From: an uncultured Spirochaetales bacterium
GTDB lineage: Bacteria > Spirochaetota > Spirochaetia > JABEVK01
Direction of reading: 5' to 3'
Assembly: GCA_964475005.1 (NCBI GenBank)
Contig: CAYYUZ010000001.1
Span: 19,780-83,779, forward strand
Length of the DNA stretch: 64,000 bases
Shown in pieces: positions 19,851-41,247 of the stretch. Numbering within the stretch: the first letter of the stretch is position 1; every line of letters starts with the position of its first letter. The translations under genes were made by a program, and so were the position numbers. Under the pieces are notes generated by a model. It saw only the letters and a program-made list of their open reading frames with translations. It ran no database searches and was not told the DNA's origin.

Positions 19851-19964
19851 GTTGCCTCCTTGACTACCGAAAAACTAGCATTTGCAATATTTTATGTCAA
19901 TCAACATAGTTAACATTAATAGACTAAATAACTAGCGTTTAAGTAGTATTACTAGGAGGACGTC
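19851..19964. promoter_or_regulatory. AT-rich divergent control region (nifB-like operon <-> metY paralog 2) with palindrome TAGTATTACTA
   Basis: 114-bp AT-rich gap. Perfect 11-bp palindrome at 19943-19953. TTGCAATATTTTATGTCAATCAAC contains -35-like TTGCAA/TGTCAA words. A related AGTAATACT palindrome lies in the nifD-like/metY3 gap. Confidence 0.45.
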
Positions 19965-24289: not shown

Positions 24290-25594
24290 ATGAGCGAGAG
24301 GAAGTTGGCCTTCGATACCCTTCAGGTCCACGCCGGGCAGGTTCCTGACCCGACGACGGGGGCCCGGGCTGTCCCCATCTATCAGACGACCTCGTTCGTC
24401 TACAAGAACTTCGACCACGCCATCGCGCTCAGTACCGTGGCCGAGTTCGGTTTCACCTACACGCGGGTCGTCAATCCCACGGCCGATGTCTTGGAACAGC
24501 GGATCGCGGCCCTGGAAGGCGGCTCCGGCGCTTTGGCGTTGGCCTCCGGTTCGGCGGCAACCACCTACGCCATCCTCAATCTTGCCGGTACCGGCGACCA
24601 CATCGTTTCCGCGCAGACCCTCTACGGCGGCACCTACAACCTGTTCGCCAACACTCTCCCCCGCTACGGGATTACGACCACCTTCGTCGATCCCGACGAA
24701 CCTGAGAATTTTCGGAAGGCCATCCGCATCAACACCAAGGCGGTGTTCATCGAGTCCATCGGCAACCCCGGAATCAACATCATCGACATCGAAAAGGTCG
24801 CCAAGATCGCCCACGAAAACGGTGTCCCTCTCATCGTCGACAACACCTTCGGCACGCCGTACCTGATCCGGCCGTTTGAATACGGTGCCGACGTCATTGT
24901 CCACTCGGCCACTAAGTACATCGGCGGCCACGGAACCACCATTGGAGGCCTTCTGGTCGAAGGGGGAAAATTCGACTGGTCCAAGAGCGGCAAATTCCCC
25001 GGTTTCACCGAAGTGGACAAGAGTTACGGCTTCAGCCACTGGGAGCGCTTCGGCAACTACAACGGCGCGAACATCGCGTTCATCATCAAGGCCCGTTTGC
25101 AACTGCTGCGCGACATCGGCGCGGCGCTGTCCCCTCAGAACGCCTTCCTCCTCCTCCAAGGGCTGGAAAGCTTGTCGCTTCGGGTTCAAAAGCATGTTTC
25201 CAATGCTCAGAAGATCGCCGAGCACCTGGCCAAACATCCGCAGGTCGAGTGGATCGATTACCCTGGGCTGCCAACCAACAAGTACCACGCCGTCGCCAAG
25301 AAGTACTTTCCCCGGGGCGTGGGAGCTATCTTCGCCTTCGGGATTAAGGGCGGGTTTCCCGCGGCCAAGAAATTCATCGAGAGCCTGACGATCTTCTCTT
25401 TTTTGGCCAACGTCGCCGATGCCAAGAGCCTTGTCGTTCATCCGGCTACCGTCACCCACGGTCAGCTCAACGAGCAGCAGCAACGCGAGGCGGGGGTCAA
25501 ACCCGAGCAGATCCGCCTGTCCATCGGTATCGAAGACGCCGAGGACCTGCTCTGGGACCTCGACCAGGCTTTTGAGAAGGCCAAGAAACTCTGA
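24290..25594 (+). CDS. metY: O-acetylhomoserine sulfhydrylase-family PLP enzyme (paralog 3)
   Basis: PLP-lysine motif [19 protein letters not shown] 8 nt before ATG 24290; the listed start at 24287 is a GTG. First gene of a long rightward operon. Confidence 0.85.
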
Positions 25595-25665: not shown

Positions 25666-26634
25666 ATGACTAAGAAGATTCTTTCGGTCGTTTGTTCCGT
25701 TCTCGTGGCTTCGGGTGCCTTCGGGCAGAGCACCGAGAAATTCCAGGTAGCCTGGGGCGGAGGAGCTTGCGAGGCTCCTGTGCTGGCGGCCTACTACAAC
25801 GGCTTTTTCAAGCAGGAAGGGCTTGACGTCGAACTGGTCAAAGTTCCCGATTTTGAGTCGGAGAAGACCGCGCTGGCCTCGAACAAGATCAGCGGTGCCG
25901 TCGGCAACTTTGGCTGGTTCAAGGCCATTGAACAGGGCTTCGCCGTCAAGCTGACCGGCGGTATCCACGCGGGTTGTATCAAGTTTGTCACTCCCCAGGG
26001 TTCGGCCATCAAGACCTTGGCCGACGTGAAGGGCAAGACCATCGGTATTGACGCCATTGGTTCGGGCCCCCAGATTGACCTTTCGATCGCCTTGCGAAAC
26101 GCTGGAATCAACCCCAAGACGGAAGTCTCCTGGAGGGCCTATCCTCCCACCGAGCTTTCTGCCGCCGTCAAGAAGAAGGAAATCGACGCGTTCATCGTCT
26201 GGGATCCGTTTGCCGCTTTCGCCGTGCAGGATGAGAAGTACAACACCCTTCTCGACATCGCCAAGGACGAACCTTTCAAGAGCGGCTATTGCTGCTTCGT
26301 CGTTGTCAGCGCGCTCTTGGTGAAGAACGACCCGAAGAAGGCCGCCGCCTACACCAAGGCCATCCTCCGTGGTGCCAAGTGGGTGGGTGAGAACCCCGAC
26401 AAGGCCGCTGCTCTCGAGGTCGACAACAAGTTTGTCCCCGGTGAGAAGCAGCAGATTGCCGACCTGTTGGCCAGCTACTACTGGAGGCCGTCGGTGTCTC
26501 ACGCCAAGGATGTCGCCAAGTACTTCATCACCGAACAGAAGAAGGACGGAATTTTGGAAGCGACGACCAACGAGGCCAAGCTCCTCGACCGCCTGTTTGC
26601 CACCGTCGTCACCGACGCCGAAGTCAATCTCTAG
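25666..26634 (+). CDS. ABC transporter substrate-binding protein, NMT1/NitT/TauT family
   Basis: Signal peptide MTKKILSVVCSVLVASGAFG; NMT1-like PBP. Confidence 0.75.
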   Translation: MTKKILSVVCSVLVASGAFGQSTEKFQVAWGGGACEAPVLAAYYNGFFKQEGLDVELVKVPDFESEKTALASNKISGAVGNFGWFKAIEQGFAVKLTGGIHAGCIKFVTPQGSAIKTLADVKGKTIGIDAIGSGPQIDLSIALRNAGINPKTEVSWRAYPPTELSAAVKKKEIDAFIVWDPFAAFAVQDEKYNTLLDIAKDEPFKSGYCCFVVVSALLVKNDPKKAAAYTKAILRGAKWVGENPDKAAALEVDNKFVPGEKQQIADLLASYYWRPSVSHAKDVAKYFITEQKKDGILEATTNEAKLLDRLFATVVTDAEVNL

Positions 26635-26697
26635 AGCTGATCTCTCCGGTTTGGCAAAAGCCAGACCGGAGAATTTTACCTGCCAAATGAGGAATCC

Positions 26698-27663
26698 ATG
26701 TCGGTCTCTCCGCGATTCAAAGTGCATCCTTTCTTTTGGGGTCCCCCCGTGGCCCTGCTCCTCGACCAAGTTCTGCATTTCTTTCCCGAAGACAACCTGC
26801 AACCGGCTCCGGAAACCGGAGTCTACTCGTTTTTGCTTTGGGTTCTTTTCGGGGCTTACGCGCTCTTTTTGACCGCGTCGGTCTTTCACCAGAGGATCAG
26901 AACGAAACTCCACCACTACACGCCCTTGCTGACGGCCTTTTTTTTGTTTTTTGGTCTCTGGGACACCGTGACGCTCAAGTACGCTCTGATCCCACTACCC
27001 TATTTTCCTGGCCCGGACCGGGTCTTGAGCGTGTTCGTCAACGATGGTGACATCTTTGGTCTTGGCATCTACCACTCTCTGGTTTTGCTGTTCACCGGCT
27101 ACGCGGTCGGCGGCGTTCTTGGCCTGATCACAGGGATTTCGATTGGTTGGAGCCGCCGCCTCTCGTACTGGATCAATCCCGTGTTCAAGTTTGTCGGTCC
27201 TATCCCGGCCACGGCTTGGATTCCAATCGCGATGATCACGTTTCCAACAAGCTTTTCGGCCGGAGTCTTTCTGATCGCCCTGTCGGTCTGGTTTCCCGTA
27301 ACCTTCATGACGAGTTCGGGCATCGCCGGCGTGAAAAACTCCTATTTTGAGGTGGCACGAACCCTCGGCGCCGACAACCGGTTCCTGATCTTCAAAGTCG
27401 CCGTTCCGGCGGCCTTTCCCCTGATCTTCATCGGGTTGTTTATGGGTTTGGGGCTGTCGTTCCTGACGCTCATTGCAGCCGAAACCTTGGGTGTTAAGGG
27501 TGGGCTTGGGTACCTGATTCTCTGGGCGCAAGGCTGGGGTGAGTACTACAAAGTCTACGCCGTGTTGATCACCATCGCTGTGCTGTTCTCGTCGCTCATT
27601 CTGATCTTGTTCAAAATCAAGGACCGTATCCTTATCTGGCAGAAAGGACTCATCAAATGGTAA
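26698..27663 (+). CDS. ABC transporter permease (NitT/TauT family)
   Basis: BPD_transp_1 permease core with extra N-terminal TM segment(s). Confidence 0.75.
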   Translation: MSVSPRFKVHPFFWGPPVALLLDQVLHFFPEDNLQPAPETGVYSFLLWVLFGAYALFLTASVFHQRIRTKLHHYTPLLTAFFLFFGLWDTVTLKYALIPLPYFPGPDRVLSVFVNDGDIFGLGIYHSLVLLFTGYAVGGVLGLITGISIGWSRRLSYWINPVFKFVGPIPATAWIPIAMITFPTSFSAGVFLIALSVWFPVTFMTSSGIAGVKNSYFEVARTLGADNRFLIFKVAVPAAFPLIFIGLFMGLGLSFLTLIAAETLGVKGGLGYLILWAQGWGEYYKVYAVLITIAVLFSSLILILFKIKDRILIWQKGLIKW

Positions 27664-28454
27664 TCCCAGCCGCCGCCTCGGGCCGGATCGAGGTCAAGGC
27701 TGTCAGCCGAACGTTCATCAACCATGAAGGCGACCGAATCCACGCCCTCGACAAGGTCGACCTGACGGTAGAGAGCGGAGAATTTCTTTCCCTTTTGGGA
27801 CCTTCCGGCTGCGGCAAATCGACCCTGCTGAGGCTTGTCGCCGGCCTGGATACCGCCTACGAAGGCTCGATCGCTGTCGACGGTGTTCCCGTTACCAAGC
27901 CTGGAGCGGAACGCGGTCTGGTGTTTCAAGACCCGAACCTGTTCCCTTGGCTCAGCGTCCGCAGGAACATTCAGCTGGGACTCGAGGCGCGTCAGGTTCT
28001 CAAGGAGAAGAAGGACGAGGTCGACGACTACATTCAACTCGTGGGGCTGAAGGGGTTTGAGAAGACCTTTCCCCACCAGCTCTCCGGCGGAATGGCCCAG
28101 CGGGCGGCCATCGCCAGGGCTCTGATCAACCACCCCAAAGTGCTTCTGCTCGACGAACCGTTGGGTGCCCTCGACGCCTTCACCCGCATGGCCATGCAAG
28201 ACGAGATTCTCCGAATTTGGACGGAGCGTCGCACCACAGCAGTTCTGGTGACCCACGACATCGACGAGGCCATTTACATGAGCGACCGCATCGTTATTCT
28301 TTCGCCTCGGCCTGGCCGGATTCAGAAGGTACTCACCATCGATCTGCCCCGGCCCCGCCGCCGCAACGATCCCGAGTTCCTGAAGATCCGTTCCGGCATT
28401 CTGGAGACCCTGCATTTTGCCGAAGAGGAGCCCATCCTTGCCTACAACCTTTGA
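27657..28454 (+). CDS. ABC transporter ATP-binding protein (NitT/TauT family)
   Basis: Walker A GPSGCGKST, signature LSGGMAQR, Walker B LLLDEP. Confidence 0.85.
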   Translation: MVIPAAASGRIEVKAVSRTFINHEGDRIHALDKVDLTVESGEFLSLLGPSGCGKSTLLRLVAGLDTAYEGSIAVDGVPVTKPGAERGLVFQDPNLFPWLSVRRNIQLGLEARQVLKEKKDEVDDYIQLVGLKGFEKTFPHQLSGGMAQRAAIARALINHPKVLLLDEPLGALDAFTRMAMQDEILRIWTERRTTAVLVTHDIDEAIYMSDRIVILSPRPGRIQKVLTIDLPRPRRRNDPEFLKIRSGILETLHFAEEEPILAYNL

Positions 28455-29823
28455 CACAGCCCAGACGACCGGCATCCGGAACTCCATTTTGGAGGTTGTG
28501 GGACAAACTCCGCTGGTCAGGTTGTCGAGGTTAGGACGCGAGCTCAACGTCGATTTGCTGGTCAAAGTCGAGACTGTCAACCCTGGCGGCAGCATTAAGG
28601 ATCGTGTCGCTATTGCCATGGTCGACGCCGCCGAACGCGAAGGACGGCTGAAACCCGGTGGCACCCTCATCGAGGCGACCGCAGGAAATACCGGCGTGGG
28701 ATTGGCGCAACTGGCGGCCGTGCGCGGCTACCGGTGCATTTTTGTTCTGCCGGACAAGATGAGCGAAGACAAGGTCAGCCTGTTGCGCGCCTACGGGGCC
28801 GAGGTGGTCATCACGCCGACCAACGTGGCCCCCGATTCCCCCGAAAGCTACAACGGGGTTGCCGACCGCCTTGCCCGCGAAATTCCGGGTGCTTGGCGGC
28901 CCAACCAGTTTGCCAACGACGACAACCCGAAAGCTCATTACGATTCCACGGGTCCCGAAATCTGGCAGGCCACTGGCGGGCGCATCGACATTCTCGTCGC
29001 AGGCATGGGCACAGGCGGCACCATCTCGGGAACCGGCCGTTTCCTCAAGGAAAAGAACCCCAGCGTGGTCGTTGTCGGTGCCGACATCGAGGGGTCCATC
29101 CTTTCGGGCGACAGTCCCAAGCCGTGGAAGGTCGAAGGCATCGGTGAGGATTTCATCCCCAAGACCTTCGACCGCCAGGTCATCGATGAATTCGTGCGCG
29201 TCAGCGACAAGGAGTCGTTTCTCACCGCCAGGCGACTTGCGCGGGAAGAGGGCATCTTGGCCGGGGGGTCGTCGGGCACAGCGCTGGCGGGAGCCCTCAA
29301 ATACGCCACGCGTCTTCAGGAGCGAAAGACCGTGGTGGTCGTCCTGCCCGACACGGGAAGGAACTATCTGACCAAGCTCTACAGCGACAGGTGGATGCAG
29401 GAGAACCAGTTCCTCGAGTCCGAAAGCACGCGCATCACCCTCCGCAACGCGCTCGAACGGCGGATTTCGTTCCCTCCTCTGATCACCGTCAGCCCTTCCA
29501 CGACCCTTTCCGAAGCGCTCGAAATCATGCAGAAGTACGGCATCAGCCAACTGCCCGTGCTCGACGGCGGCAGGGCGGTCGGAAGCCTGCAAGAGTCCTC
29601 TTTCCTCAAGCTGGTTTGGGATGGCTTAGATTTCCGCAACCAGCAGGTCAACGCCGTCATGGGACAACCGCTTCCCACCCTTGATTGGGGCACCGAGGTC
29701 ACCGAAGCCTACCGTCTGCTCCTTTCGGGGACAAACGCCCTTTTGGTCACACAGGATGGCGTCCCGACTTCGGTCCTCACGAGGATCGATCTGATCGACT
29801 TTCTTTCCAGGAGAACCTCATGA
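28417..29823 (+). CDS. cystathionine beta-synthase (CysK-fold PLP domain + C-terminal CBS-domain pair)
   Basis: N-terminal Trp-synth-beta/CysK fold with PLP-lysine context (GSIKDR) and TAGNTG loop. About 130-aa C-terminal tandem CBS domains. Start overlaps the upstream ATPase by 38 nt, so start is approximate. Confidence 0.75.
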   Translation: MPKRSPSLPTTFDTAQTTGIRNSILEVVGQTPLVRLSRLGRELNVDLLVKVETVNPGGSIKDRVAIAMVDAAEREGRLKPGGTLIEATAGNTGVGLAQLAAVRGYRCIFVLPDKMSEDKVSLLRAYGAEVVITPTNVAPDSPESYNGVADRLAREIPGAWRPNQFANDDNPKAHYDSTGPEIWQATGGRIDILVAGMGTGGTISGTGRFLKEKNPSVVVVGADIEGSILSGDSPKPWKVEGIGEDFIPKTFDRQVIDEFVRVSDKESFLTARRLAREEGILAGGSSGTALAGALKYATRLQERKTVVVVLPDTGRNYLTKLYSDRWMQENQFLESESTRITLRNALERRISFPPLITVSPSTTLSEALEIMQKYGISQLPVLDGGRAVGSLQESSFLKLVWDGLDFRNQQVNAVMGQPLPTLDWGTEVTEAYRLLLSGTNALLVTQDGVPTSVLTRIDLIDFLSRRTS

Positions 29824-30956
29824 CCCTCGACACAAAACTCATTCACGCCGGACAGGAACCCGACCCGGTGACCGGCGCGGTGAACGTGCCCATCAACGTC
29901 AGTTCGACCTTTAAACAGGACGGCATCGGTCAGATGCGTTCAGGTTACGAATATGCCCGTTCGGGCAATCCCACGCGGAACTCGCTCGAAGCGACCCTCG
30001 CCGCCATCGAAAACGGTGGCTTCGCCAAGGCTTTCGCTTCGGGTCTGGCCGCCGAGAACACGTTACTTTCTCTGCTTCACTCCGGCGACGAAGTAGTCGG
30101 CACCAGTGACATCTATGGCGGAACCTACCGCCTGCTGACCAAAGTGTTTCCGCGCTTCGGGGTGACCTTTCGTGCCGTGAACGGACACAACCCGGCTGAT
30201 TTCAAGAAGCAGCTGAGTTCCCGGACACGGCTGATCTGGGTGGAGACTCCCACCAACCCCCTGCTGAATCTGGTCGACATTGCTTCCATCGCCGAGCTGA
30301 AGCCCAAAAACGTTCTGCTGGCCGTTGATAACACCTTCGCTAGCCCCTATTTTCAGACACCGCTAGACCTCGGCGCCGACGTGGTGGTCCACAGCGCCAC
30401 CAAGTACCTCAGCGGTCACAGCGATGTGATCGGCGGAGCCCTGGTCTATAAAGATAAGGCCTTGGACGAGGAGATTCGTTACCTCCACAATGCACAGGGG
30501 GGAATCCTTTCTCCTTTCGATAGTTACCTGATTCAGCGTGGCATCAAGACCCTCGGTGTTCGCATGAAACGGCACGAACAGACCGCGTGGAAGGTCGCCG
30601 AATTTCTTCGTGGTCATTCCAAGGCCGAGAAAGTATTCTTTGCGGGCTTTGAAGATCATCCCGGAGCGGCGGTGGCAAAGAAGCAGATGCGGGGCCAGCC
30701 GGGACTCGTCAGTTTTGTTTTGAAGGGCACCAAGAGCGATGTGAATCGCTTCTTTCAGAGCCTGAAGCTCTTCACCTTCGCCGAAAGCTTGGGCGGGGTC
30801 GAGTCGCTCACCTGCTACCCCTATGAAATGACCCACGGCAGCATTCCCGCCGAGGTCAAGGACAAGATCGGCATCACCGACAGGCTTATCCGTCTGTCGG
30901 TGGGGTTGGAAGACGCCAATGAATTGATCGAGGACTTGAAGTCGGCGCTGAAGTGA
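29820..30956 (+). CDS. cystathionine gamma-lyase / gamma-synthase family PLP enzyme (MetB/MetC/CGL)
   Basis: 378 aa; SATKYLSGHSD PLP-lysine motif. ATGA overlap with CBS stop. The listed longer ORF start (29685) is inside the CBS gene. Confidence 0.8.
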   Translation: MTLDTKLIHAGQEPDPVTGAVNVPINVSSTFKQDGIGQMRSGYEYARSGNPTRNSLEATLAAIENGGFAKAFASGLAAENTLLSLLHSGDEVVGTSDIYGGTYRLLTKVFPRFGVTFRAVNGHNPADFKKQLSSRTRLIWVETPTNPLLNLVDIASIAELKPKNVLLAVDNTFASPYFQTPLDLGADVVVHSATKYLSGHSDVIGGALVYKDKALDEEIRYLHNAQGGILSPFDSYLIQRGIKTLGVRMKRHEQTAWKVAEFLRGHSKAEKVFFAGFEDHPGAAVAKKQMRGQPGLVSFVLKGTKSDVNRFFQSLKLFTFAESLGGVESLTCYPYEMTHGSIPAEVKDKIGITDRLIRLSVGLEDANELIEDLKSALK

Positions 30957-31128: not shown

Positions 31129-31386
31129 CTAGATCTTGGTCTTGTCGGTGGCTTTGGTGTTCGCCAGGGGGAGTTTGCAGCAGTCGGGCGTACTCACGCC
31201 GTCGGTTCCCACAGCTTTGAAATCCGCGAATCCCGAGGTTGGGTCGGGCGCGAGAAGGTTCGCGTTGTCATCGTCGGCGCTCGCCTCGGTGGCGGGAGCT
31301 TTCGCCACGGCTTTCTTGTCGGGACCGCAAGCGACGAGGGCGATGGTCGCGGCCAAAAGGACGATGGGGAGGAGGAAGTGGTTCAT
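31129..31386 (-). CDS. small lipoprotein (85 aa), hypothetical
   Basis: Lipoprotein signal peptide MNHFLLPIVLLAATIALVAC with lipobox LVAC. AAGGAG RBS 6 nt before ATG 31386; Lys/Asp-rich mature part. Confidence 0.6.
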   Translation of the reverse strand: MNHFLLPIVLLAATIALVACGPDKKAVAKAPATEASADDDNANLLAPDPTSGFADFKAVGTDGVSTPDCCKLPLANTKATDKTKI

Positions 31387-31473
31387 GAAACTCTCCTTGA
31401 GGATTCTATTATGAGTAATGCTATCAACTAAATAGTATATGAAATCAGCAGAGTTAATCAAGAAGGAGATTCC

Positions 31474-32940
31474 ATGAAAATTGCAGAAAATGTGTTGGCT
31501 TTGATCGGCCGGACACCGTTGGTTCGCTTGCACAAGTTGATTCCTCCCGGCGGAGCCGATCTGTTAGTGAAGCTGGAGTCGATGAACCCCTATTCGAGCG
31601 TCAAGGATAGGCTGGGCGTTGCCCTGATCGAGGCAGCCGAGCGCGACGGAACTCTGACGCCGGGGGCCACGTTGATCGAGCCGACCAGCGGGAACACCGG
31701 CATCGCGCTTGCCTTTGCCGCGATAGTCAAAGGCTACAAACTCATCCTGGTTATGCCCGAGACCGTCAGCTCCGAGCGCCGCAAGATCGTTGAGGCCCTG
31801 GGAGCTGAAGTCGAGTTGGTCGACGCGGCCGACGGCATGGGGGCGTCCGTCCGCCGAGCCGAGGAATTACGGTCCTCGATTCCTGGTGCTGTCATCCTGG
31901 GACAGTTCGACAATCCGGCGAACCCGGCCGTCCACCGGTCCACAACGGCTCAGGAGATCTGGGACGACACCGACGGCACCGTTGACATTTTTGTCGCCGG
32001 GGTCGGAACCGGCGGAACCGTCACCGGCGTGGGACAAAGGCTCAAAGAACTCAAGCCCAGCATCCAGATCATCGCGGTGGAACCGTGGAAATCGTCGGTC
32101 CTTTCCGGCGGCGTGGCGGCTCCCCACAAGATTCAGGGCATCGGGGCGGGGTTTGTTCCCAGGGTGTACGACCCCGCCGTGGTTGACGAGGTCATCACGG
32201 TCAAGGAGGAGGACGCCGGCTACTTCGCTCGAAGGCTGGCTCGGGAAGAAGGCCTTCTGACGGGGGTCTCTTCGGGGGCCGCGCTCTGGGCCGCGTGGCA
32301 GGTCGCCGCGAGAGGCCAAAATGCTGGAAAGCGGATCGTCGTTCTGTTGCCTGACTCGGGAGAGCGCTACCTTTCCACCTGGCTCTACGACTATATCGAC
32401 ATCCGGAAGGTCGGGATCTCGCGGTCTGAAGCCCCTGTCGGTGCTCTCGATCCGGTGGTTCCTCGAACTGATTATGTTCCCACGGCGCCCCTGTTTGACA
32501 GTGATTCGCAGGCGGTCCGTCAGTCGGTTCACTACTTTCAGAACGGCCTCTACTGCAGCGAGGCCATCCTCAAGGCCTTCAACGACCACTACCACCTGGG
32601 CCTCGACGAGAAAGTGCTGAAGATCGCCACGGGTTTCGGTGCCGGTCTTGGCGCCGCCAAGTGCGCTTGCGGATCGGTTACCGGCGCGGCGATGGTGTTG
32701 TCGGCGGTGGCAGGACGAACTCTGTCGAGCGAGTCCGAAGAGGTCGTGTTTCAGACAACGGCGCTCCTTCACGACCGCTTCAAGGCCAAGTATCGGGCCA
32801 TTTGCTGCCGGGTCCTAACGCGAAACGTCGAGTGGGGCTCGGCGGCGCACAAGACCTACTGCGAGCGCTTGGTGTGGGATGCGGCGGCGCTGGCGGACCA
32901 ATTGCTGAAAGAGCATCTGGCAACCCGATTCAATACTTGA
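31474..32940 (+). CDS. cysteine synthase A-type (O-acetylserine sulfhydrylase) fused to C-terminal C_GCAxxG_C_C-family putative redox domain
   Basis: Residues 1-310 are a complete CysK ([33 protein letters not shown]). Residues about 330-488 contain [12 protein letters not shown] ... [18 protein letters not shown] ... CCRVL ... YCER, matching the Cys pattern that names the C_GCAxxG_C_C family. Confidence 0.75.
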
Positions 32941-32997
32941 CTAATACTATCGGATTGGTAATATTAGAAAGAAAATTGATTTTCCAAGGAGTCCGAC

Positions 32998-34011
32998 ATG
33001 CCGCAATCCGCTCTTCCCATCCTCGACCTCAGTCAGTTCGACGCTGGACCTGATGCCCGGCGCCACTTCTTAGACGACCTCGGCACCGCCGCTCGCGACG
33101 TGGGTTTTTTCTACCTCAAGGGGCATGGTATCAGCCAAGACTTGGGTCAGTCGGTGTTCAAGCTTTCGCGAAGTTTTTTTGACCTTCCTGAAGCCGAAAA
33201 GCTCAAGATCGAGATGGTCCATTCGCCGCACTTTCGCGGCTACACCCGCGTCGGCAAAGAACTGACGCGGGGAAAGCCCGACCGCCGCGAGGAACTCGAC
33301 ATAGGCCGCGAGCTTCCCGTCGTGTCGCCGGTGCCACCCGAGCAGCCTTGGCTCTCCCTGCAGGGTCCCAACCAGTGGCCGCAGGCTCTTCCCGAATTGA
33401 AACCGGCGCTCCTAGAGTGGCAGGATCTGCTGACTGAGATTCTGCTCAAGCTGCTGAAGGCCTTTGCACTGATTCTCGAACAGCCCGAAGGTGCCTTCGA
33501 CGGCCTGGTGGGGCAGACGGCGACCCGCGGATTGAAGATCATCCGCTACCCGGGTGTAGAAGTCGTGGGTGACGACCAAGGCGTGGGGTCTCACAAGGAC
33601 TCCGGCATTCTGACGGCGGTTTACCAGGATGGCGTGGCAGGGTTGCAAGTCGGAACCGACACCGGCTGGGTCACGGCGGAACCCATTCCCGGAACCTTTG
33701 TCATCAATATAGGCGAGTTGCTTGAACTGGCCACCGACGGCTATCTGCGGGCCACGGTTCACCGGGTAGTTTCACCCCCTGCCGGAAAGGAACGGCTTTC
33801 GGTCGCCTACTTTCTCGGTGCCAGACTCGACGCCAAAGTGGAAGTCCTCCCTCTACCGGCACGGCTAAAAGCCTTGGCGCGGGGAGTGGCCGCTGACCCT
33901 CTCAATCCGCTCTTTCACGATGTGGGTCCTAACTACCTCAAGAGCCGATTGCGGTCGCATGTGGACGTCGCCCAGAGGCACTACGCCGACTTGCTGTCTA
34001 CTCAAGTCTAG
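32998..34011 (+). CDS. 2-oxoglutarate/Fe(II)-dependent dioxygenase (isopenicillin-N-synthase/EFE-like family)
   Basis: N-terminal DIOX_N-like region (PILDLSQF) and 2OG-FeII_Oxy core with HxD...H (GSHKDSG ... TVHRVV) and RxS (ERLSVAYF). Confidence 0.75.
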   Translation: MPQSALPILDLSQFDAGPDARRHFLDDLGTAARDVGFFYLKGHGISQDLGQSVFKLSRSFFDLPEAEKLKIEMVHSPHFRGYTRVGKELTRGKPDRREELDIGRELPVVSPVPPEQPWLSLQGPNQWPQALPELKPALLEWQDLLTEILLKLLKAFALILEQPEGAFDGLVGQTATRGLKIIRYPGVEVVGDDQGVGSHKDSGILTAVYQDGVAGLQVGTDTGWVTAEPIPGTFVINIGELLELATDGYLRATVHRVVSPPAGKERLSVAYFLGARLDAKVEVLPLPARLKALARGVAADPLNPLFHDVGPNYLKSRLRSHVDVAQRHYADLLSTQV

Positions 34012-34030
34012 TTTGTCGAAGCGGGGTTCC

Positions 34031-34531
34031 GTGAAAAAGGAAGTGATAGATCTCGACGTGCTGGCCCGAGCCACAGAAAGGTTCCGTGCCGACCCTCAAA
34101 ACAAACCTCGCTTTGACGCGAGGGTCGAATGGCAGGGGGGCTATCGCACCACCAGTCGACTCGGGGCCTTTGCCGGCCCCAACGGCGACGAACCAGTGGA
34201 CTACGCTGGAAGCGGAACTGGTCCGGCGCCCGAGGAGCTTCTGCTTGCGGCAGCGGCCCAATGCCTTTTGGTGGGGATCGCCGGCGCCACCGCGGTGCGG
34301 CGGATTGCGGTCAAGAACCTTGTGGTGAGGGCTTCGGGGCGTGTGAACTTGCCCGCGGCCTTCGGTGTCACCGAGGGCCATCCTGGTTTTGAAACGGTGG
34401 AACTCACCGTAGAAATCGACGCCGAAGCCGAGCGCGGCCTTCTGGAATCGCTGGTACAAGCCGCCCTCGCTAGGGCTCCAGTTCCCGCTTCGCTGGCTCG
34501 ACCGGTCTCGGTAACCGCGAGGCTGGCGTGA
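34031..34531 (+). CDS. OsmC/Ohr-family (peroxiredoxin-like) protein
   Basis: OsmC-like fold with two conserved Cys contexts (LLAAAAQCLLVGI; second Cys region). GTG start at 34031 just after the dioxygenase stop; start approximate. Confidence 0.6.
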   Translation: MKKEVIDLDVLARATERFRADPQNKPRFDARVEWQGGYRTTSRLGAFAGPNGDEPVDYAGSGTGPAPEELLLAAAAQCLLVGIAGATAVRRIAVKNLVVRASGRVNLPAAFGVTEGHPGFETVELTVEIDAEAERGLLESLVQAALARAPVPASLARPVSVTARLA

Positions 34532-35640
34532 AGACCGAGCGGCTTTCGGTTTTGGTCGTCGGGGCCGGACCTGCCGGTTTAGCCGCGGCCCAACAACTCA
34601 GTAGACGGGGCCTCGACCCGACGGTGGTGGAACGCACCTCGGCGGTGGGCGATGTGTGGGCTGGCCACTACGACAGGCTGCGGATCAACACCCTCGCATC
34701 GGTCAGTTTTCTTCCTGGATTGAGGTTTCCCAAGGGCGCAGGGGACTATCCCTCCCGCGACGAGGTGGTCGCCTACCTCAAGCGCTACGCTGAGACGTTC
34801 GTCTCCGATCTTCGAACCGGCGTTGAGGTTGCGGGATTGGAACCCCTGGCCCAGAGGGGAACCTGGCGCGTGACGGGAACGGGAATCGATGCCGAAGTCG
34901 GCGCGGTCGTGCTGGCACTCGGAATGTGTTCCTCGCCCAAGTGGCCCGATTGGCCAGGTCGGGAAACCTTTCGCGGCGAGTTGTTCCACTCCTCGTCGTA
35001 CCGCGAGGCCTCCGCCTACCGAGGAAGACGGGTTTTGGTCGTCGGTGCCGGAAACTCGGGCTTCGATCTGGTGCTCGACTGCCTCGACGCTGGGGCCGAG
35101 GTGTTTCTGTCGGTTCGGACTCCCGCGCATCTGCTGCCTCGGAGGTTTCTTGGCCTCTCGGTCCAGAGGTTCGGTATCGTCACACGATGGCTGCCTGCCT
35201 GGGTTGGTGACGGTTGGGCCGAGTTGGCCCGGCGGCGGTCGGGGTTGACCGAGTCGGCCCTGGGGTTCCCCCAGCCCCATGACTCGGTTTCGGTTCACTA
35301 CAAGAAGACCGGAATTCCTCCGGTCTCCAACCCCGAGGTTCCCCAGGCGCTCCGGACAGGAAGGATCCGGGTCGTTCCAGCGGTGACAGGCTTCGATGGA
35401 CCGGAGGTCCTGCTGGAGGGGGGACGGAGGCTCGCGGCCGACGTCGTTCTCGCCGCGACTGGCTATCATCGTTCCCTCGAGCAACTTGTCGGTCCCTGGC
35501 AAGGAGCTCCCCGTTTGTACAGGCTGGGTTACAGTGACCCGATCACGGGCAACCTGAGGGAAATCCGATTGGAAGCCCGACGCCTCGCCCTGCAGGTGGC
35601 GAGGGATCTCAAACGGTCAACAGCCCGGCATCGAGGATGA
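34528..35640 (+). CDS. flavin-containing monooxygenase (class B FAD/NAD(P)-binding, FMO-like)
   Basis: GXGXXG FAD site VVGAGPAGLAAA, second dinucleotide site VVGAGNSGFDL, FMO-type linker (FRGELFHSS.Y). GTG start overlaps the OsmC stop by 4 nt. Confidence 0.75.
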   Translation: MKTERLSVLVVGAGPAGLAAAQQLSRRGLDPTVVERTSAVGDVWAGHYDRLRINTLASVSFLPGLRFPKGAGDYPSRDEVVAYLKRYAETFVSDLRTGVEVAGLEPLAQRGTWRVTGTGIDAEVGAVVLALGMCSSPKWPDWPGRETFRGELFHSSSYREASAYRGRRVLVVGAGNSGFDLVLDCLDAGAEVFLSVRTPAHLLPRRFLGLSVQRFGIVTRWLPAWVGDGWAELARRRSGLTESALGFPQPHDSVSVHYKKTGIPPVSNPEVPQALRTGRIRVVPAVTGFDGPEVLLEGGRRLAADVVLAATGYHRSLEQLVGPWQGAPRLYRLGYSDPITGNLREIRLEARRLALQVARDLKRSTARHRG

Positions 35641-36953: not shown

Positions 36954-37053
36954 GGAGCTCTCCTCTTAATGACTATCGAAGTAGTAGGACATATATACTA
37001 AAATGTCAATCATCTATATTGACATTAGAAACAATGTTGAATACGGTGTGCCT
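36954..37053 (+). promoter_or_regulatory. AT-rich promoter region of metNIQ-like operon
   Basis: TATATTGACA (-35-like TTGACA) at about 37013-37022; the same 10-mer occurs upstream of the porin gene (about 42193-42202). TAGTA-N9-TACTA inverted repeat at about 36981-36999. Confidence 0.4.
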
Positions 37054-37833
37054 ATGATCGAAGTCCGTGGTCTCTCCAAAACCTTCTTCTCTCCCCAAGG
37101 TCCGGTGCTGGCCCTTCGTGACGTGAACCTTTCGATCAAGCCGGGGGAGATTTTTGGGATCGTAGGATTCTCCGGAGCCGGAAAATCGACCCTTTTGCGA
37201 TGCTTGAACCGTCTGGAGACTCCCGAAAGCGGCGTGATCGTCGTCGACTCCCACATCGTGGGAACGCTCGATGAGAGGGCCCTTGCCCGCTTTCGCCGCC
37301 GCGTCGGCATGATCTTTCAGCAGTTCAACCTTTTTGACAGCAGGACGGTCTCGGGAAACGTCGCCTTTCCGTTGGAGTGCGCCGGAGTCGCCGCGCGGCG
37401 TGTTCAATCGCGCGTGGACGAACTGCTCGATCTGGTGGGACTTTCAGACAAAGCTCGATCCTATCCGGGGCAGCTCTCCGGCGGACAAAAGCAGCGCGTC
37501 GGTATCGCGCGCGCCCTGGCCAACGATCCTGTGGTGCTCTTGTGCGACGAGGCAACCTCGGCGCTCGATCCCCAGACCACGATGTCCACGCTTGACCTTT
37601 TGGGCCGCCTGAATAAGTCGCTTGGATTGACGCTGGTGTTGGTGACCCACGAACTCGACCTTGTCGGAGCGTTTTGCGACCGCATGGCCGTAATGGACGC
37701 CGGAAGAATTGTGGAAGTCGGCACGGTGCGCAAGATCTTTAACGATCCCCAAAGCTCGACGGCGAGAAGTTTTGTCGGTATCACGCGCAGTCTGCAAGAA
37801 GGTCAGCTTTACCGCGACGGAGCCGGTGTATGA
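37054..37833 (+). CDS. metN: methionine-type ABC transporter ATP-binding protein (MetN-like, lacking C-terminal NIL domain)
   Basis: Walker A GFSGAGKST, signature LSGGQKQR, Walker B LLCDEATSALD. About 259 aa, so no regulatory C2/NIL domain. Start at ATG 37054 (MIEVRGLSK) preferred over 37003. Confidence 0.7.
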   Translation: MIEVRGLSKTFFSPQGPVLALRDVNLSIKPGEIFGIVGFSGAGKSTLLRCLNRLETPESGVIVVDSHIVGTLDERALARFRRRVGMIFQQFNLFDSRTVSGNVAFPLECAGVAARRVQSRVDELLDLVGLSDKARSYPGQLSGGQKQRVGIARALANDPVVLLCDEATSALDPQTTMSTLDLLGRLNKSLGLTLVLVTHELDLVGAFCDRMAVMDAGRIVEVGTVRKIFNDPQSSTARSFVGITRSLQEGQLYRDGAGV

Positions 37834-38498
37834 CCAGTGACTTGTTTGATCTCTTGGTTCAGGCTCTGGGTGAAACCCTGTACATGACCGCACTTTCAAG
37901 TGTGATCGGATTGGCGCTCGGGTTGCCGCTGGGAATCGTCTTGACCGTGACCGGACGCGGGCACCTGGCCGCCTCCCCCTGGTGGAACAAAGGTTTGGGC
38001 CTTGTCATCAATCTGACGAGGTCCTTTCCCTCGATCATTCTCATCATTGTGGCGCTTCCGTTGTCCCGGTTTTTGGTGGGAACGACTCTGGGAGCCACGG
38101 CTGCCTTGGTTCCTCTAAGCCTGAGCGCCGCTCCGTTTTTGGCCCGCATCATCGAAGGCGCTCTCAAAGAAGTCGACAAAGGAAAGATCGAAGCCGCACT
38201 GGCCGGTGGTGCGCGGCGCGGGCAGGCCGTCCTGAGAATCCTTCTGCCCGAGGCCCTGCCGTCCTTGATCCGCGGAATCACGCTCTCGGTCATTTCGATC
38301 TTGGGACTGACCGCCATTGCCGGCGCCATCGGTTCCGGCGGGCTGGGAAGTTTGGCCATTCGGTTCGGCTACATGCGCTTTCGCGACGACGTCATGGTCG
38401 CCACCGTCATCGTGTTGGTGGTCCTTGTTCAGGGAATTCAAACGTCGGGAGATCTCATCGCCCGGCACATTAGCAAAAGGAGGCACGTGTATGAATGA
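37830..38498 (+). CDS. metI: methionine-type ABC transporter permease (MetI-like)
   Basis: 5-TM BPD_transp_1 permease of MetI size (222 aa); ATGA overlap with the metN stop. Confidence 0.75.
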   Translation: MTSDLFDLLVQALGETLYMTALSSVIGLALGLPLGIVLTVTGRGHLAASPWWNKGLGLVINLTRSFPSIILIIVALPLSRFLVGTTLGATAALVPLSLSAAPFLARIIEGALKEVDKGKIEAALAGGARRGQAVLRILLPEALPSLIRGITLSVISILGLTAIAGAIGSGGLGSLAIRFGYMRFRDDVMVATVIVLVVLVQGIQTSGDLIARHISKRRHVYE

Positions 38499-38599
38499 CC
38501 GGCGTTGTTGTCGGGCGCGGCCGCTCTGATCCGCCCGCCCACCAGGGGTTCTGGTGTTCTAAAGACTACTAAAACCATGTTTTCAATAGGAGATAACTC

Positions 38600-39379
38600 A
38601 TGAAGAAGCTCATTGTCGCCGTGTTGCTGGCCGCTCTGGTCAGCCTGCCCTCGTTTGCCGATTCCATCTTGAAAGTCGGCTCCGCCGTCACTCCCCATAG
38701 CGAAATTTTGACGTTTGTCAAAGACAAACTCAAGGCGCAAGGTATCGACCTCCAGGTCGTCATCCTCGACGACGAGGGCCAGCTCAACCCCGCCCTCGCA
38801 GAAAAGCAGATCGACGCCAACTACTTTCAGCACGTTCCCTACCTGGAATCGGTCTCCAAAGAGAAGGGTTACAAGTTCGTCAACGCCGGCAACATCCACG
38901 TCGAACCGATCGGGTTTTATTCCTTGAAGTGGAAGAACAAGGCCGATTTGAAGACCGGCGCCAAGATCGGCATTCCGAACAACCCCTCCAATGAGTACCG
39001 CGCCTTGGTTCTCCTCGAAACCCAAGGGCTGATCAAGCTGAAGAAGGGCATCGCCAACTTCAGCGCCACCCCCAAGGACATCGCCGAGAACCCGAAGAAG
39101 TTCGAGTTCATTGAGGTCGATGCGGCCCAATTGCCTCGCTCGCTTCCCGACCTCGATGGCGCGGTGATCAACACCAACATCGTGCTTGAGGCCAAGCTTG
39201 ACCCGAATTCGGCGCTCTTCCGCGAAGACGCTCGTTCACCCTACGCTAACATCATCACGGTGCGCGCTGGAGACGAGAAGCGGCCCGAAATCGTTAAGCT
39301 CGTGAAGGTCCTTCAGAGCAAGGAAGTAGCCGCTTTCATCAAGACCAAGTACGGCGTGGCGGTCGTTCCGGCGTTCTAA
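38600..39379 (+). CDS. metQ: MetQ/NlpA-family methionine-binding lipoprotein
   Basis: Signal peptide MKKLIVAVLLAALVSLPSFA; NlpA-family blocks (NYFQH.PYL, IGIPNNPSNE, ANIITVR). Confidence 0.8.
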   Translation: MKKLIVAVLLAALVSLPSFADSILKVGSAVTPHSEILTFVKDKLKAQGIDLQVVILDDEGQLNPALAEKQIDANYFQHVPYLESVSKEKGYKFVNAGNIHVEPIGFYSLKWKNKADLKTGAKIGIPNNPSNEYRALVLLETQGLIKLKKGIANFSATPKDIAENPKKFEFIEVDAAQLPRSLPDLDGAVINTNIVLEAKLDPNSALFREDARSPYANIITVRAGDEKRPEIVKLVKVLQSKEVAAFIKTKYGVAVVPAF

Positions 39380-39419: not shown

Positions 39420-41195
39420 TTATTCGACCCCGATACGCGAAACAGGAAAATCGTCCTGTTTGCTCCATTCATTCCACGAGCCTTCGTAGTTGAGCGGTTT
39501 GTCGTAGGCCAAGGCGTCGAGGATAAGCGTGTAGACCGCCGCCCGAAACCCACCCTCGCAATAGGCATAGACCGTTTGGTTTCTCGTCAGCCCCTTGGAT
39601 TCGAGCAGTGCCAGCAGTTGTTCCGGATTCTTGAGGACTTGAACGGGACGACCTTCCTGAAAACTGCTGGGAACGACTCGGCCCGAGGAGTCACGAAAAT
39701 CGGTATAGAGTGAGTCGTACTCGACCAGGATGGCTCGGGGAATATGGCCCGCGCGGGCCCCGAAGGACGGATCAAGGAGTGTGGTTCCCTCGTATTCTTC
39801 CTTGGTTCGAATGTCGGCTATGGTCACTTCTCCGGGCGAATCGAGAACTTGCAAGAGTTGATCCTTGGTAGCGAGCAACCGAGCGAAGGCCGCAGGAGGA
39901 TACGAGGCAAGGGCCCTGACGGGAAGTCTGGGCACGGTTTCGAGGGCACGACCGTCCACATCTTTCCATTTGTCGATGCCGCCATCGATAATCCAGGCGC
40001 TCTCGTGTCCCAAGGACCGGAGCATCCAAGGAAATCGCCCGGCGTACGAACTGGTGTCGTAGTCATAGGCAACCACCCATGAGGATGGCCTGATTCCTGC
40101 GCTCGTCAGCAGTTCTGCAAAATGTTCCGGTTGAGGAAGGCTGTATTTGATCACCTTGCCGTCGGGCTGAGTCCTCGTTGAATAATACTGATTCCTTGGA
40201 ATGTTGATTGCTCCGGGAATATGGCCCTGGCTGTACTCCTCGGGGCTACGCACATCAATCAAAACCAGGCGCGGATCACTGAGATGGGCCGCCAGCCAAT
40301 CGGTGGAAACAAAGGCACCGAAGGTTCGTGTATCCTTGAGCTTTGTTGAGGGTATTCCCGCCTCCAACGGCGTGTCGTCACGGTTTCCCCATTCTTCCCA
40401 GGACCCATCGTAGTTTCTGACGTTGGTCACCCCGGCGCGTTGAAGCGACAGCAAGGCGTGCGCCGCTCTGACTCCCGACTGGCAGTAGGTAATGACCTCG
40501 GTTTCAGGATTGATCCCGAGCGTTGCCAATTCCTGGGCTATAGACGTAGGGCTTCGCAGGGTCAGTCCATCGTCTTCCAGGCTTCGAGACCATTCCCACC
40601 AAACGGAATTGGGAATCCTGCCGGCGCGTTTGGCGCGTCTATCCGTACCCAGAAACTCTGCCTCTGAGCGCGTATCGAGTAGCACCGTTGCCGAGGCCTT
40701 GCCTTGCACGTCGGCCAGGGTGGCATACCATTTGCGTTCTCGTGGCAAGGTGAGCTTTGTCGGCTTTGGTGAATCGCCCGACCCTTGGTTGACGGGAAGA
40801 CCGGCCGACTTCCAAGTGGCTAGCCCTCCTTCGAGTAGGGCAACACTTTGCCATCCGGCAACACTCAGCGCCCAGGCCAAACGTGCCGCGTAGAGACCGT
40901 TGCCGGCATCGTAGACCAACGCCGGACGCGCCGGATCGAAACCTTGTCCTTCGAGAGCCTGGGCCAAAGCCGCCATTGCTGGAAGCATTCCCTGAACTCC
41001 TTCCACCTCGGTCCACACAAGGTTCTTCTCGACATGCTGAGCCCCAGGGAGGTGTCCAAGCTCGAAATCGGTGAGCAGGCGCCCGTAATCGAAGACTTGA
41101 AAAGGCTGGGACCAACGTCCGTCTTGCCAGACGTCCCGAGCCCCAAGAAACACCGCGAGACCTTCGTAATTTAGATTCGTTATCAACTTGACCAT
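39420..41195 (-). CDS. multi-domain rhodanese (four tandem rhodanese modules; thiosulfate/3-mercaptopyruvate sulfurtransferase-like)
   Basis: Active-site CQSGVRAA and CEGGFRAA (CxxGxR) loops in modules 2 and 4; SseA/TST-like tandem architecture duplicated. Start ATG 41195 preferred, but RBS spacing is poor; start uncertain. Confidence 0.75.
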   Translation of the reverse strand: MVKLITNLNYEGLAVFLGARDVWQDGRWSQPFQVFDYGRLLTDFELGHLPGAQHVEKNLVWTEVEGVQGMLPAMAALAQALEGQGFDPARPALVYDAGNGLYAARLAWALSVAGWQSVALLEGGLATWKSAGLPVNQGSGDSPKPTKLTLPRERKWYATLADVQGKASATVLLDTRSEAEFLGTDRRAKRAGRIPNSVWWEWSRSLEDDGLTLRSPTSIAQELATLGINPETEVITYCQSGVRAAHALLSLQRAGVTNVRNYDGSWEEWGNRDDTPLEAGIPSTKLKDTRTFGAFVSTDWLAAHLSDPRLVLIDVRSPEEYSQGHIPGAINIPRNQYYSTRTQPDGKVIKYSLPQPEHFAELLTSAGIRPSSWVVAYDYDTSSYAGRFPWMLRSLGHESAWIIDGGIDKWKDVDGRALETVPRLPVRALASYPPAAFARLLATKDQLLQVLDSPGEVTIADIRTKEEYEGTTLLDPSFGARAGHIPRAILVEYDSLYTDFRDSSGRVVPSSFQEGRPVQVLKNPEQLLALLESKGLTRNQTVYAYCEGGFRAAVYTLILDALAYDKPLNYEGSWNEWSKQDDFPVSRIGVE

Positions 41196-41247
41196 CCTCC
41201 CGGGCAAGACGTAGTCTCTTATCTATACTTTGTCAATAGGATTACTC

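Follow-up and report, generated by a model that had tools for sequence, protein, structure and literature searches.

What does a cysteine synthase gain from a second, cysteine-rich domain attached to its C-terminal end? The question is raised by a gene at positions 31,474 to 32,940 of a 64,000-nucleotide stretch of DNA from an uncultured Spirochaetales bacterium (GenBank assembly GCA_964475005.1, contig CAYYUZ010000001.1, positions 19,780 to 83,779 of the forward strand), the whole of which is referred to below as the window. The product consists of an O-acetylserine sulfhydrylase (CysK) module, a linker and a tail of the C_GCAxxG_C_C family. Its cysteine pattern assigns the tail to a separate subfamily with six cysteines, and the gene neighbours of this subfamily, fused or free-standing, are non-random: they comprise an ATP-binding cassette (ABC) importer, genes of cysteine and methionine synthesis, and arsenic (ars) loci. 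The answer tentatively preferred here, with a confidence that falls somewhat short of even, is that the tail is a thiol/iron redox module which would process sulfane-level or thio-oxyanion sulfur for CysK.

The gene and its parts are located as follows:

31385..31412, + strand: candidate sigma-70-like promoter, by consensus match only, in AT-rich DNA ahead of the fusion gene
31463..31469, + strand: ribosome-binding site AAGGAGA, 4 nt ahead of the fusion ATG, read from the sequence
31474..32940, + strand: CysK-C_GCAxxG_C_C fusion open reading frame (ORF), 488 aa plus stop, ATG start, frame uninterrupted, both domains above curated cutoffs
31498..32388, + strand: CysK module, residues 9-305 (TIGR01139)
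31603-31605, + strand: codon of K44, the pyridoxal phosphate (PLP) lysine, within the CysK module
32389..32508, + strand: flexible linker, residues 306-345, with low AlphaFold pLDDT (predicted local distance difference test) and low column identity
32509..32901, + strand: six-cysteine C_GCAxxG_C_C domain, residues 346-476, predicted all-helical in a tail-only model (PF09719 at 360-476)
32554..32556, + strand: C361, first family cysteine, kept in 60/60 fusion members
32662..32670, + strand: C397-A-C399, the latter being the family 'CGAxxG' cysteine and the former a subfamily-specific extra
32803..32808, + strand: C444-C445, the second being the family 'CR' cysteine and the first an extra
32860..32862, + strand: C463, fourth family cysteine, kept in 60/60 fusions

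A first-pass annotation of this DNA had taken the first approximately 310 residues for a complete O-acetylserine sulfhydrylase, followed by a linker and a C_GCAxxG_C_C domain with a characteristic spacing of cysteines, and the domain searches bear out each of these assignments. Pfam places PALP at residues 9-294 (E 8.9e-73), and the NCBIfam cysK equivalog TIGR01139 matches residues 9-305 with 416.2 bits against a cutoff of 350.95, while the motifs K44, TSGNTG (71-76), GTGGT (178-182) and S266 are all present and invariant in 60 family members; by these marks the module is a complete, canonical O-acetylserine sulfhydrylase that looks active. The equivalog test for CysM failed (TIGR01138, 298 against 394; NF008735, 288 against 413), and the CysK of the fused clade is set apart at two positions only, by an aromatic residue at 205 and by Ala for Pro at 215, both located in the segment 204-218 just ahead of a motif of the CysK module. 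In the tail, PF09719 (C_GCAxxG_C_C) covers residues 360-476 with an E-value of 8.8e-26 (90.8 bits against a gathering cutoff of 27), and TIGR01909, the C-GCAxxG-C-C family (seleno)protein, scores 78.7 bits against 47.4. The complete cysteine set of the protein consists of C361, C397, C399, C444, C445 and C463, all residing in the tail and spaced in the pattern that had been quoted (C361, C397-x-C399, C444-C445, C463). The linker between the two modules has a pLDDT below 50 over residues 300-337 in the AlphaFold model and varies from 27 to 51 residues in length across the fusion family; its column identity is 0.29, whereas the CysK module reaches 0.79 and the tail 0.73.

The fusion is an established, if rare, architecture. 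A homologue search covering 5.8 billion proteins, clustered at 90% identity, returned approximately 60 clusters of full-length homologues with both Pfam domains (463-522 aa, 50-63% identity, 99% coverage), which, where named, are called only 'cysteine synthase A', the named ones deriving from metagenome-assembled genomes of Spirochaetaceae and Clostridia. The exact 488-aa sequence was found on three contigs from independent sources (NCBI, JGI and ENA), the longest of 102.5 kb. When 1.84 billion representatives (50%-identity clusters) were scanned in full, 2,917 proved to be related to the tail at E <= 1e-3, but no more than 17 at E <= 1e-30, and among the best 150 tail-matching representatives a single one (P0005) was a CysK fusion, nearly all others being proteins of 130-200 aa, which agrees with the earlier expectation that the domain is usually free-standing. 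A neighbour-joining tree of the tails groups the fused proteins in what is essentially a single clade, a pattern that would fit one main fusion event with later diversification. One fused subclade (P0019, P0020, P0037, P0038, P0044-P0054 and P0058) carries a conserved C-terminal extension of approximately 25 residues ending in '...EYLPENGGKALEEKKKYINNPDKIRI', which the window protein lacks; 16/60 family members end in Ile. The C-terminal Ile of serine acetyltransferase plugs the active site of CysK, and by analogy the Ile-ending extension could be a self-inhibitory tail.

When the tail was used alone as a query, approximately 80 free-standing proteins of about 150 aa were found, which at 50-61% identity are as near to the tail as the fusion proteins are to each other; cultivable carriers of the free-standing gene include Caproiciproducens sp. 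NJN-50 and Heliobacterium chlorum. Invariant in both fused and free members are C361, C397, C399, C444, C445, H433, H459 and W454, and C463 is nearly so. Comparison with distant members from a metagenome scan identifies C361, C399 (in CGAxxG), C445 (in CR) and C463 as the canonical family cysteines, and C397 and C444 as extras, which turn the family motifs into CxCG and CCR. Among all distinct sequences collected, which are related and so do not represent independent events, 135 have both extra cysteines, 51 have neither, three have the CC alone and none has the CxC alone; members at loci L114-L116, just 29-36% identical to the tail, also have both. So strict a pairing is an argument for C397 and C444 acting together. 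The tail thus marked out is distinct from the DVU_1555 subfamily as far as scores go, since the cutoff of the latter (NF045669) is not reached (44.7-47.7 bits against 103). In three distant members (L125, L153 and L157), an in-frame TGA lies exactly at the position of the first cysteine, C361; these are presumably selenocysteine forms, and selenoprotein forms of the family are already known, TIGR01909 being named by NCBIfam a '(seleno)protein'. The presence of TGA at this site argues that the first cysteine position is chemically active. The genes in question lie at ~1215-1649 (L125), ~3336-3785 (L153) and ~879-1328 (L157), and read 'GCA*SQAIL' or 'EGWA*SQAIL' at the site.

As to what the six cysteines might form, the predicted fold offers a lead. 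The tail-only AlphaFold model, built on a 70-sequence alignment, has seven helices with a pLDDT of 90.6 and a predicted TM-score (pTM) of 0.87, and Foldseek matches it to 1H21, split-Soret cytochrome c, with a probability of 1.00 and a TM-score of 0.69, all other matches having a probability below 0.3. The title of the 1H21 entry includes 'a novel iron centre', which is reportedly a [2Fe-2S] cluster on four cysteines, and it is the N-terminal iron-centre domain of that protein that constitutes the only significant fold match of the tail, although 1H21 is a periplasmic dihaem cytochrome and the fusion protein has no haem motif CxxCH. At the level of sequence, 1H21 is also the top match of the family profiles in the Protein Data Bank (PDB), a weak one (E = 0.35 and 0.052), in which C399 aligns with Cys86 (TICGALYGA) and C463 with Cys171 (SERCGRL), so that two of the four canonical cysteines are mapped; single canonical members used as PDB queries did not reach 1H21, and the tail alone returned only His-tag and glycine-loop noise from the sequences of solved structures. 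By analogy with 1H21, the four family cysteines (C361, C399, C445 and C463) would form a metal or redox centre, and the two extra ones, C397 and C444, each adjoining one of the four, may provide either a dithiol/disulfide with redox activity or, next to that centre, two more thiolates, the third and the fourth. The iron-centre relative points to a metal or redox site in the tail rather than to a simple thiol carrier. The cluster-plus-disulfide chemistry of ferredoxin:thioredoxin reductase and of HdrB-like proteins was considered as an analogy for the CxC/CC pair; no homology to either was found, and the comparison is kept as an inference only.

The neighbourhoods of the free-standing relatives connect the domain to sulfur as well as to arsenic. 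Two of them reside in operons that look like the window fusion resolved into separate genes: ThiF-CysK-MetY-like-domain-SBP-permease-ATPase-amino-acid permease in L107 (SBP, substrate-binding protein), and MetY-like-CysK-heavy-metal P-type ATPase-MetY-like-domain-SBP-permease-ATPase in L106, where CysK lies 4.5 kb upstream. These split operons, with CysK, MetY-like enzyme, free domain and importer side by side, suggest that the tail is coupled to sulfur-amino-acid synthesis. The P-type ATPase of L106 (6155-8440, with an HMA domain), located between CysK and a MetY-like gene, is a hint that the cassette may be tied to thiophilic-metal stress. In L103, L109 and L113, the free domain accompanies the same SsuA-like importer. 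Other free members are found in ars operons: ArsM-GNAT-domain-ArsR-...-Acr3-ArsD-ArsA in L091/92, domain-SBP-ArsD-ArsA-ArsR-Acr3 in L093, ArsR-Acr3-domain-DUF362-ArsP in L094, the free domain followed by ArsR-ArsD-ArsA in L108, permease-ATPase-domain-SBP-B3_4-ArsR-Acr3-ArsD-ArsA-ArsC in L175, and domain-(degraded SBP)-ABC ATPase-ArsD-ArsA-ArsR in L176, while on the short contig L100 an ArsR gene adjoins the domain. In the tail tree, the free members from the sulfur operons (L106, L107) and those from ars operons (P0191, P0186) fall into the same clade, and one orthologous function probably serves both settings. In three of the arsenic islands the C_GCAxxG_C_C gene has a paralogue within a few kb, the two lying at 1305-1775(-) and 7001-7465 in L175, 3201-3659(-) and 4065-4553 in L176, and 434-883 and 7001-7498 in L093; one of the two in L175 is paired with its own ArsR-family regulator.

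The loci of the fused relatives fall into four types. Those of type A (L001/2, equal to L095/96, L003/4, L087 and L123) contain genes for an LPG_synthase_TM protein, a DedA/VTT protein, the fusion, ArsS (TIGR04167, 395 bits against 300) and fused TIGR04283/TIGR04282 'arsenosugar glycosyltransferases', with a rhodanese adjoining the operon upstream in all but L003/4 and an MTAP-like phosphorylase in all but L087; L001 also has a ThiF gene, and in L003/4 ArsR-Acr3-ArsC stands directly ahead of the operon. The operons span 6348-12654 in L001/L002, 6345-12790 in L003/L004, 3975-10941 in L087 and 2789-8774 in L123. ArsS adenosylates dimethylarsenite (PMC13598754), and no ArsM was seen within 8 kb of these operons, which suggests that their product may differ from classical arsenosugars. 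In type B, comprising the window, L005/6 and L099, the SsuA-like ABC importer lies upstream of the fusion, in the window with a cystathionine beta-synthase (CBS) and a cystathionine gamma-lyase (CGL)-like gene in between, and L005/6 is an arsenic island of the order MarR-ArsM-ArsN-like...ArsR-CoA-disulfide-reductase/rhodanese-ArsR-Acr3-ArsD-ArsA, the ArsM of which scores 309 against 263 with NF008823. In type C (L088, 3300-14712; L090, 3288-14666), the fusion gene overlaps the last permease gene of a Bmp-type (nucleoside-like) ABC importer and is followed at its 3' side by two FMN reductases, two short-chain dehydrogenases/reductases, an AP-endonuclease-2/CMD protein and a cytidine-deaminase-like gene; type D (L089) is an orphan copy of the fusion.

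That these associations exceed chance was addressed by a census in which one tblastn reference set was run on every locus of 6 kb or more, redundant ones excluded. Core ars genes (Acr3, ArsA, ArsD, ArsC and ArsP) were detected in 7/22 loci of close, six-cysteine members and in 0/18 loci of distant members (Fisher p 0.011), and with ArsS/ArsM added the count rises to 10/22 against 0/18 (p 0.0008); the SsuA-like importer (SBP or permease) was found in 9/22 against 0/18 (p 0.002), and any of ars, ArsS/ArsM or importer in 15/22 against 0/18 (p 6e-6), figures that are to be read with the reference proteins being drawn from the close set, the loci being phylogenetically related, the contigs differing in length, and ArsR-family regulators and CoA-disulfide-reductase/rhodanese genes being able to belong to persulfide-response systems. 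As a control, 80 plain-CysK loci without fusions were taken from GTDB genomes, 74 of them of at least 6 kb, and here an ars-type match was present in 1/74 and an importer in 1/74. The near-zero counts at these loci mean that the associations follow the cysteine-rich domain, not CysK. Free relatives in ars islands, together with fused members in ArsS operons, indicate that the substance handled may be arsenic or an arsenic-sulfur compound, instead of or besides plain sulfur.

The preferred reading puts these elements together as a synthase with its own tethered redox module. The tail would act as a built-in reductase or acceptor that lowers sulfur at the sulfane or thio-oxyanion level to the thiol, just before or just after the beta-replacement carried out by CysK; the substrate could be a persulfide, or S-sulfocysteine derived from thiosulfate, and the sulfur source would be brought in by the partner ABC importer, with cysteine as the product. 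The nearest functional analogy, and it is an analogy only, is the thiosulfate route of E. coli, where S-sulfocysteine, the product of CysM, needs to be reduced by thioredoxin or glutaredoxin, which yields cysteine and sulfite (PMC3528435). Common to the two would be an obligatory thiol-dependent reduction after the step of a beta-replacement synthase, whereas E. coli employs separate, general reductants of the thioredoxin fold and the fusion would employ an unrelated helical domain tethered to a synthase of the CysK type. The recurrent rhodaneses, ThiF and CoA-disulfide-reductase/rhodanese genes fit this sulfane-sulfur theme. For the arsenic islands, two extensions may be envisaged, namely that the protein supplies thiol under metalloid stress, or that thioarsenate is processed in the way thiosulfate is, the substrate there being monothioarsenate, a look-alike of thiosulfate, or other As-S adducts. 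The first-pass annotation had proposed that the tail handles a sulfur species for CysK; the general part of that proposal is partly borne out, the split operons and the importer, CBS, CGL-like, CysM and rhodanese genes of the window tying the domain to sulfur, while the carriage of persulfide or sulfide by the tail found no support. The six-cysteine character of the tail and the link to arsenic are additions to that annotation.

It has to be noted that several findings weigh against the tethered reductase. The CysK module scores as CysK and not as the thiosulfate-using CysM, with the two diagnostic substitutions as its only peculiarity; in no locus does the binding protein of the importer reach the SsuA cutoff. 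Free members in L091, L094 and L108 are located in ars operons with neither CysK nor importer nearby, and such operons are not explained by a role specific to cysteine synthesis. The sequence similarity between the tail and 1H21 is borderline (E = 0.05). The linker is disordered in the model, and no functional study was found in the literature on the family name, on PF09719/TIGR01909 or on DVU_1555/1556.

Those ars operons that lack both CysK and importer are best explained by the strongest competitor, which is considered possible but on the whole doubtful: that the tail is a module for arsenic(III) or another metalloid, in which the CxC, the CC and the other two cysteines would hold As(III) or methyl-As(III) through three or four thiolates, as is done by ArsD, ArsR and ArsM, so that it serves as a chaperone, buffer or sensor and, in the fused form, couples the supply of cysteine to metalloid stress, e.g. 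by As(III) binding switching CysK on. Consistent with that, free relatives at 50-61% identity populate the ars settings of L091/92, L093, L094, L100, L108, L175 and L176, fused members stand beside ArsR-Acr3-ArsC in L003/4 or ArsM-ArsN...ArsR-Acr3-ArsD-ArsA in L005/6, a heavy-metal P-type ATPase lies inside the L106 operon, and the census separates close from distant loci for core ars genes (7/22 against 0/18) as it does with ArsS/ArsM (10/22 against 0/18). Distant four-cysteine members in L138, L142 and L166 also pair with methyltransferases, lying directly 3' of ArsM-like genes that are 33-45% identical to the ArsM of L005/L091, and NCBIfam holds the paired families DVU_1555 (C-GCAxxG-C-C, NF045669) and DVU_1556 (methyltransferase, NF045667); the methyltransferase partnership may therefore be a trait of the wider family. 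Against this picture stand the window itself, in which tblastn with ArsR, Acr3, ArsC, ArsD, ArsA and ArsS gave no match within the 64 kb, and L106, L107 and L099, where the setting is one of sulfur genes or the importer and ars genes are absent. Furthermore, the domain shares neither sequence nor fold similarity with ArsD, ArsR or ArsM, its structural relative binds iron and not arsenic, and the ArsR-family and CoA-disulfide-reductase/rhodanese genes of these islands can also serve a persulfide response.

A bolder version, which joins the two themes and is thought rather unlikely, regards the six-cysteine module together with the SsuA-like importer as an unrecognised component of arsenic metabolism, a thiol/iron-centre protein that would capture or reductively cleave As-S species such as monothioarsenate. 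The fused CysK would then take a thio-oxyanion as its nucleophile and the tail would resolve the S-As (or S-S) bond, so that the sulfur is harvested as cysteine and arsenite is released for export by Acr3 or ArsA, which would amount to a new 'ars' function.

Slightly less credible again, and unlikely on our assessment, is a purely regulatory role, in which the tail senses oxygen, oxidants or iron-sulfur status and gates CysK without touching its substrate. Regulatory domains at the C-terminus are common among enzymes of PLP fold-type II, examples being the CBS pairs in cystathionine beta-synthase and the ACT-like domains in threonine deaminase, and the CBS enzyme encoded near the fusion in the window has a C-terminal regulatory domain of this kind. 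The C-terminal placement of the tail, behind a linker that is long and disordered, would suit such a role, as would the canonical CysK module with almost no changes of specificity, the location of substitutions 205 and 215 in the segment 204-218, where a regulatory domain could dock, and the conserved C-terminal extension ending in Ile in one fused subclade. What a regulatory domain leaves unexplained is the free form, which accompanies the importer or resides in ars islands devoid of CysK, and the selenocysteine variants suggest catalysis and not sensing.

It is improbable, to a further degree, that the CysK module makes a new beta-substituted alanine other than cysteine, from an unusual nucleophile that the tail would hold or deliver (an arsenical, a species of selenium, or a thiol or heterocycle taken up by import), as part of an organoarsenical (arsenosugar-type) or other specialised pathway. 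Enzymes of the CysK family accept many nucleophiles. The fusion lies within or beside ArsS operons with arsenosugar glycosyltransferases in all type A loci, where the dimethylarsenite-adenosylating activity of ArsS would be apt, and in L088/L090 its gene overlaps the Bmp-type importer operon that runs on into FMN reductases, short-chain dehydrogenases/reductases and a deaminase. The equivalog-level CysK score and the fully canonical active site argue against a new specificity, no ArsM accompanies the type A operons within 8 kb, and the context in the window is one of plain sulfur-amino-acid metabolism; a specialised CysK specificity was down-weighted with only two diagnostic substitutions to its credit.

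Finally, an artefact, i.e. two adjacent genes merged by a frameshift or in assembly, or a tail that matches the family by chance, either of which the first-pass annotation had named as fatal to its view, deserves practically no credence given the continuous frame, the approximately 60 full-length homologues of the same architecture, the identical protein on three independent contigs and the PF09719 match at E 8.8e-26.

The preferred reading, a tethered redox module for CysK, thus concerns an uncharacterised architecture of known parts that is present in public databases as 'cysteine synthase A'. Compared with free CysK (TIGR01139), with which it shares an above-cutoff module at residues 9-305 and all catalytic motifs, the fusion adds 180 C-terminal residues of linker and cysteine-rich domain; compared with the PF09719/TIGR01909 'putative redox-active (seleno)protein', both cutoffs of which the tail exceeds and all four cysteines of which it has, the tail presents CxC and CC in place of single cysteines and is fused to an enzyme, most members being free proteins of 130-200 aa. 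Small partners that present a thiocarboxylate sulfur, or As(III) on vicinal cysteines, are familiar from the CysM-CysO system of Mycobacterium and from ArsD chaperones, respectively. The ThiF genes in L107 and L001 recall the former, whereas the tail has neither a ubiquitin-like fold nor a GG terminus, and there is no homology between the tail and ArsD. No paper was found on the fusion, the six-cysteine subfamily or the association with ars islands and importer in a literature search outside of which most subscription journals lay, and no title among those on cysteine synthase in ars operons described such a fusion.

The current name hides the second domain of these proteins. C_GCAxxG_C_C is a large family (approximately 2,900 clusters at 50% identity) with selenoprotein forms, and its fusion to a well-understood enzyme provides a handle for assays; the split-gene versions constitute a second, independent link of the domain to cysteine and methionine synthesis, and the co-occurring pair of extra cysteines marks a defined subfamily, the role of the pair being open to mutagenesis. 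Taken alone, the fusion would be a modest curiosity; together with the split genes, the iron-centre relative, the cysteine pair and the arsenic and importer link, it makes the function of the family directly testable. The arsenic link, if true, would add a new component to the arsenic islands of anaerobes and join sulfur assimilation with arsenic detoxification.

The surroundings of the gene in the window include the following:

15289-16494, 19965-21275, 24302-25579 and 29820-30956: four Cys/Met-PLP paralogues, the last being the CGL-like gene listed below
25666..28454, + strand: SsuA-like ABC importer (Pfam, NCBIfam), with binding protein at 25666-26634, permease at 26698-27663 and ATPase at 27657-28454
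28417-29823, + strand: cystathionine beta-synthase (TIGR01137, 545 against 510), between importer and fusion
29820-30956, + strand: cystathionine gamma-lyase/synthase-like gene (Pfam Cys_Met_Meta_PP, 477 bits)
32998-34011, + strand: 2-oxoglutarate (2OG)-Fe(II) oxygenase of the DIOX_N type, downstream of the fusion
33920-34531, + strand: OsmC-like protein, downstream of the fusion
34528-35640, + strand: flavin monooxygenase, downstream of the fusion
37003-39379: MetNIQ
39420-41207, - strand: three-domain rhodanese, 595 aa
41248-42144: true CysM (NF008735, 444 against 413)

The three genes of the window importer are 53-67% identical to those of the transporter directly ahead of the fusion in L005. 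With a separate CysM and CBS within 14 kb, the fusion is best regarded as an extra, specialised copy of cysteine synthase in a sulfur-amino-acid island; close to the fusion in L001 and in L087, too, there is a further PALP gene of the plain kind. The window is unusually dense in sulfur-amino-acid genes and contains in addition at least two further matches to SsuA-type ABC ATPases. No riboswitch or other regulatory RNA was found in it, and the ThiF of L001, used as a reference, had no match there, small ThiS/CysO-like ORFs not having been searched for systematically. Between the CGL-like gene and the fusion is a gap of 517 nt, which includes a small divergent ORF (~31129-31386, - strand) with a lipoprotein-like N-terminus (MNHFLLPIVLLAATIALVACG...) and no Pfam match. 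Downstream, the flavin monooxygenase has ArsO as its best NCBIfam match, though at 135 against a cutoff of 425, and it was not counted as such; oxygen-dependent enzymes are unexpected beside a domain otherwise typical of anaerobes.

A short motif, A[A/G]TAGTAT[T/A]A (core TAGTATTAC), recurs in the window in seven copies with at most one mismatch, where 0.33 would be expected and 0/100 shuffles reached seven. The copies lie at 19942, 24172(-), 31431, 32942(-), 41235, 42178(-) and 63507; that at 31431..31440 (+) lies 34 nt ahead of the fusion start, and another flanks the gene at 32942-32951 (-). Genes with a copy a short distance ahead of them are a Cys/Met-PLP gene (19965), the fusion (31474), the 2OG oxygenase (32998) and CysM (41248), and the motif may represent a shared operator of a sulfur regulon.

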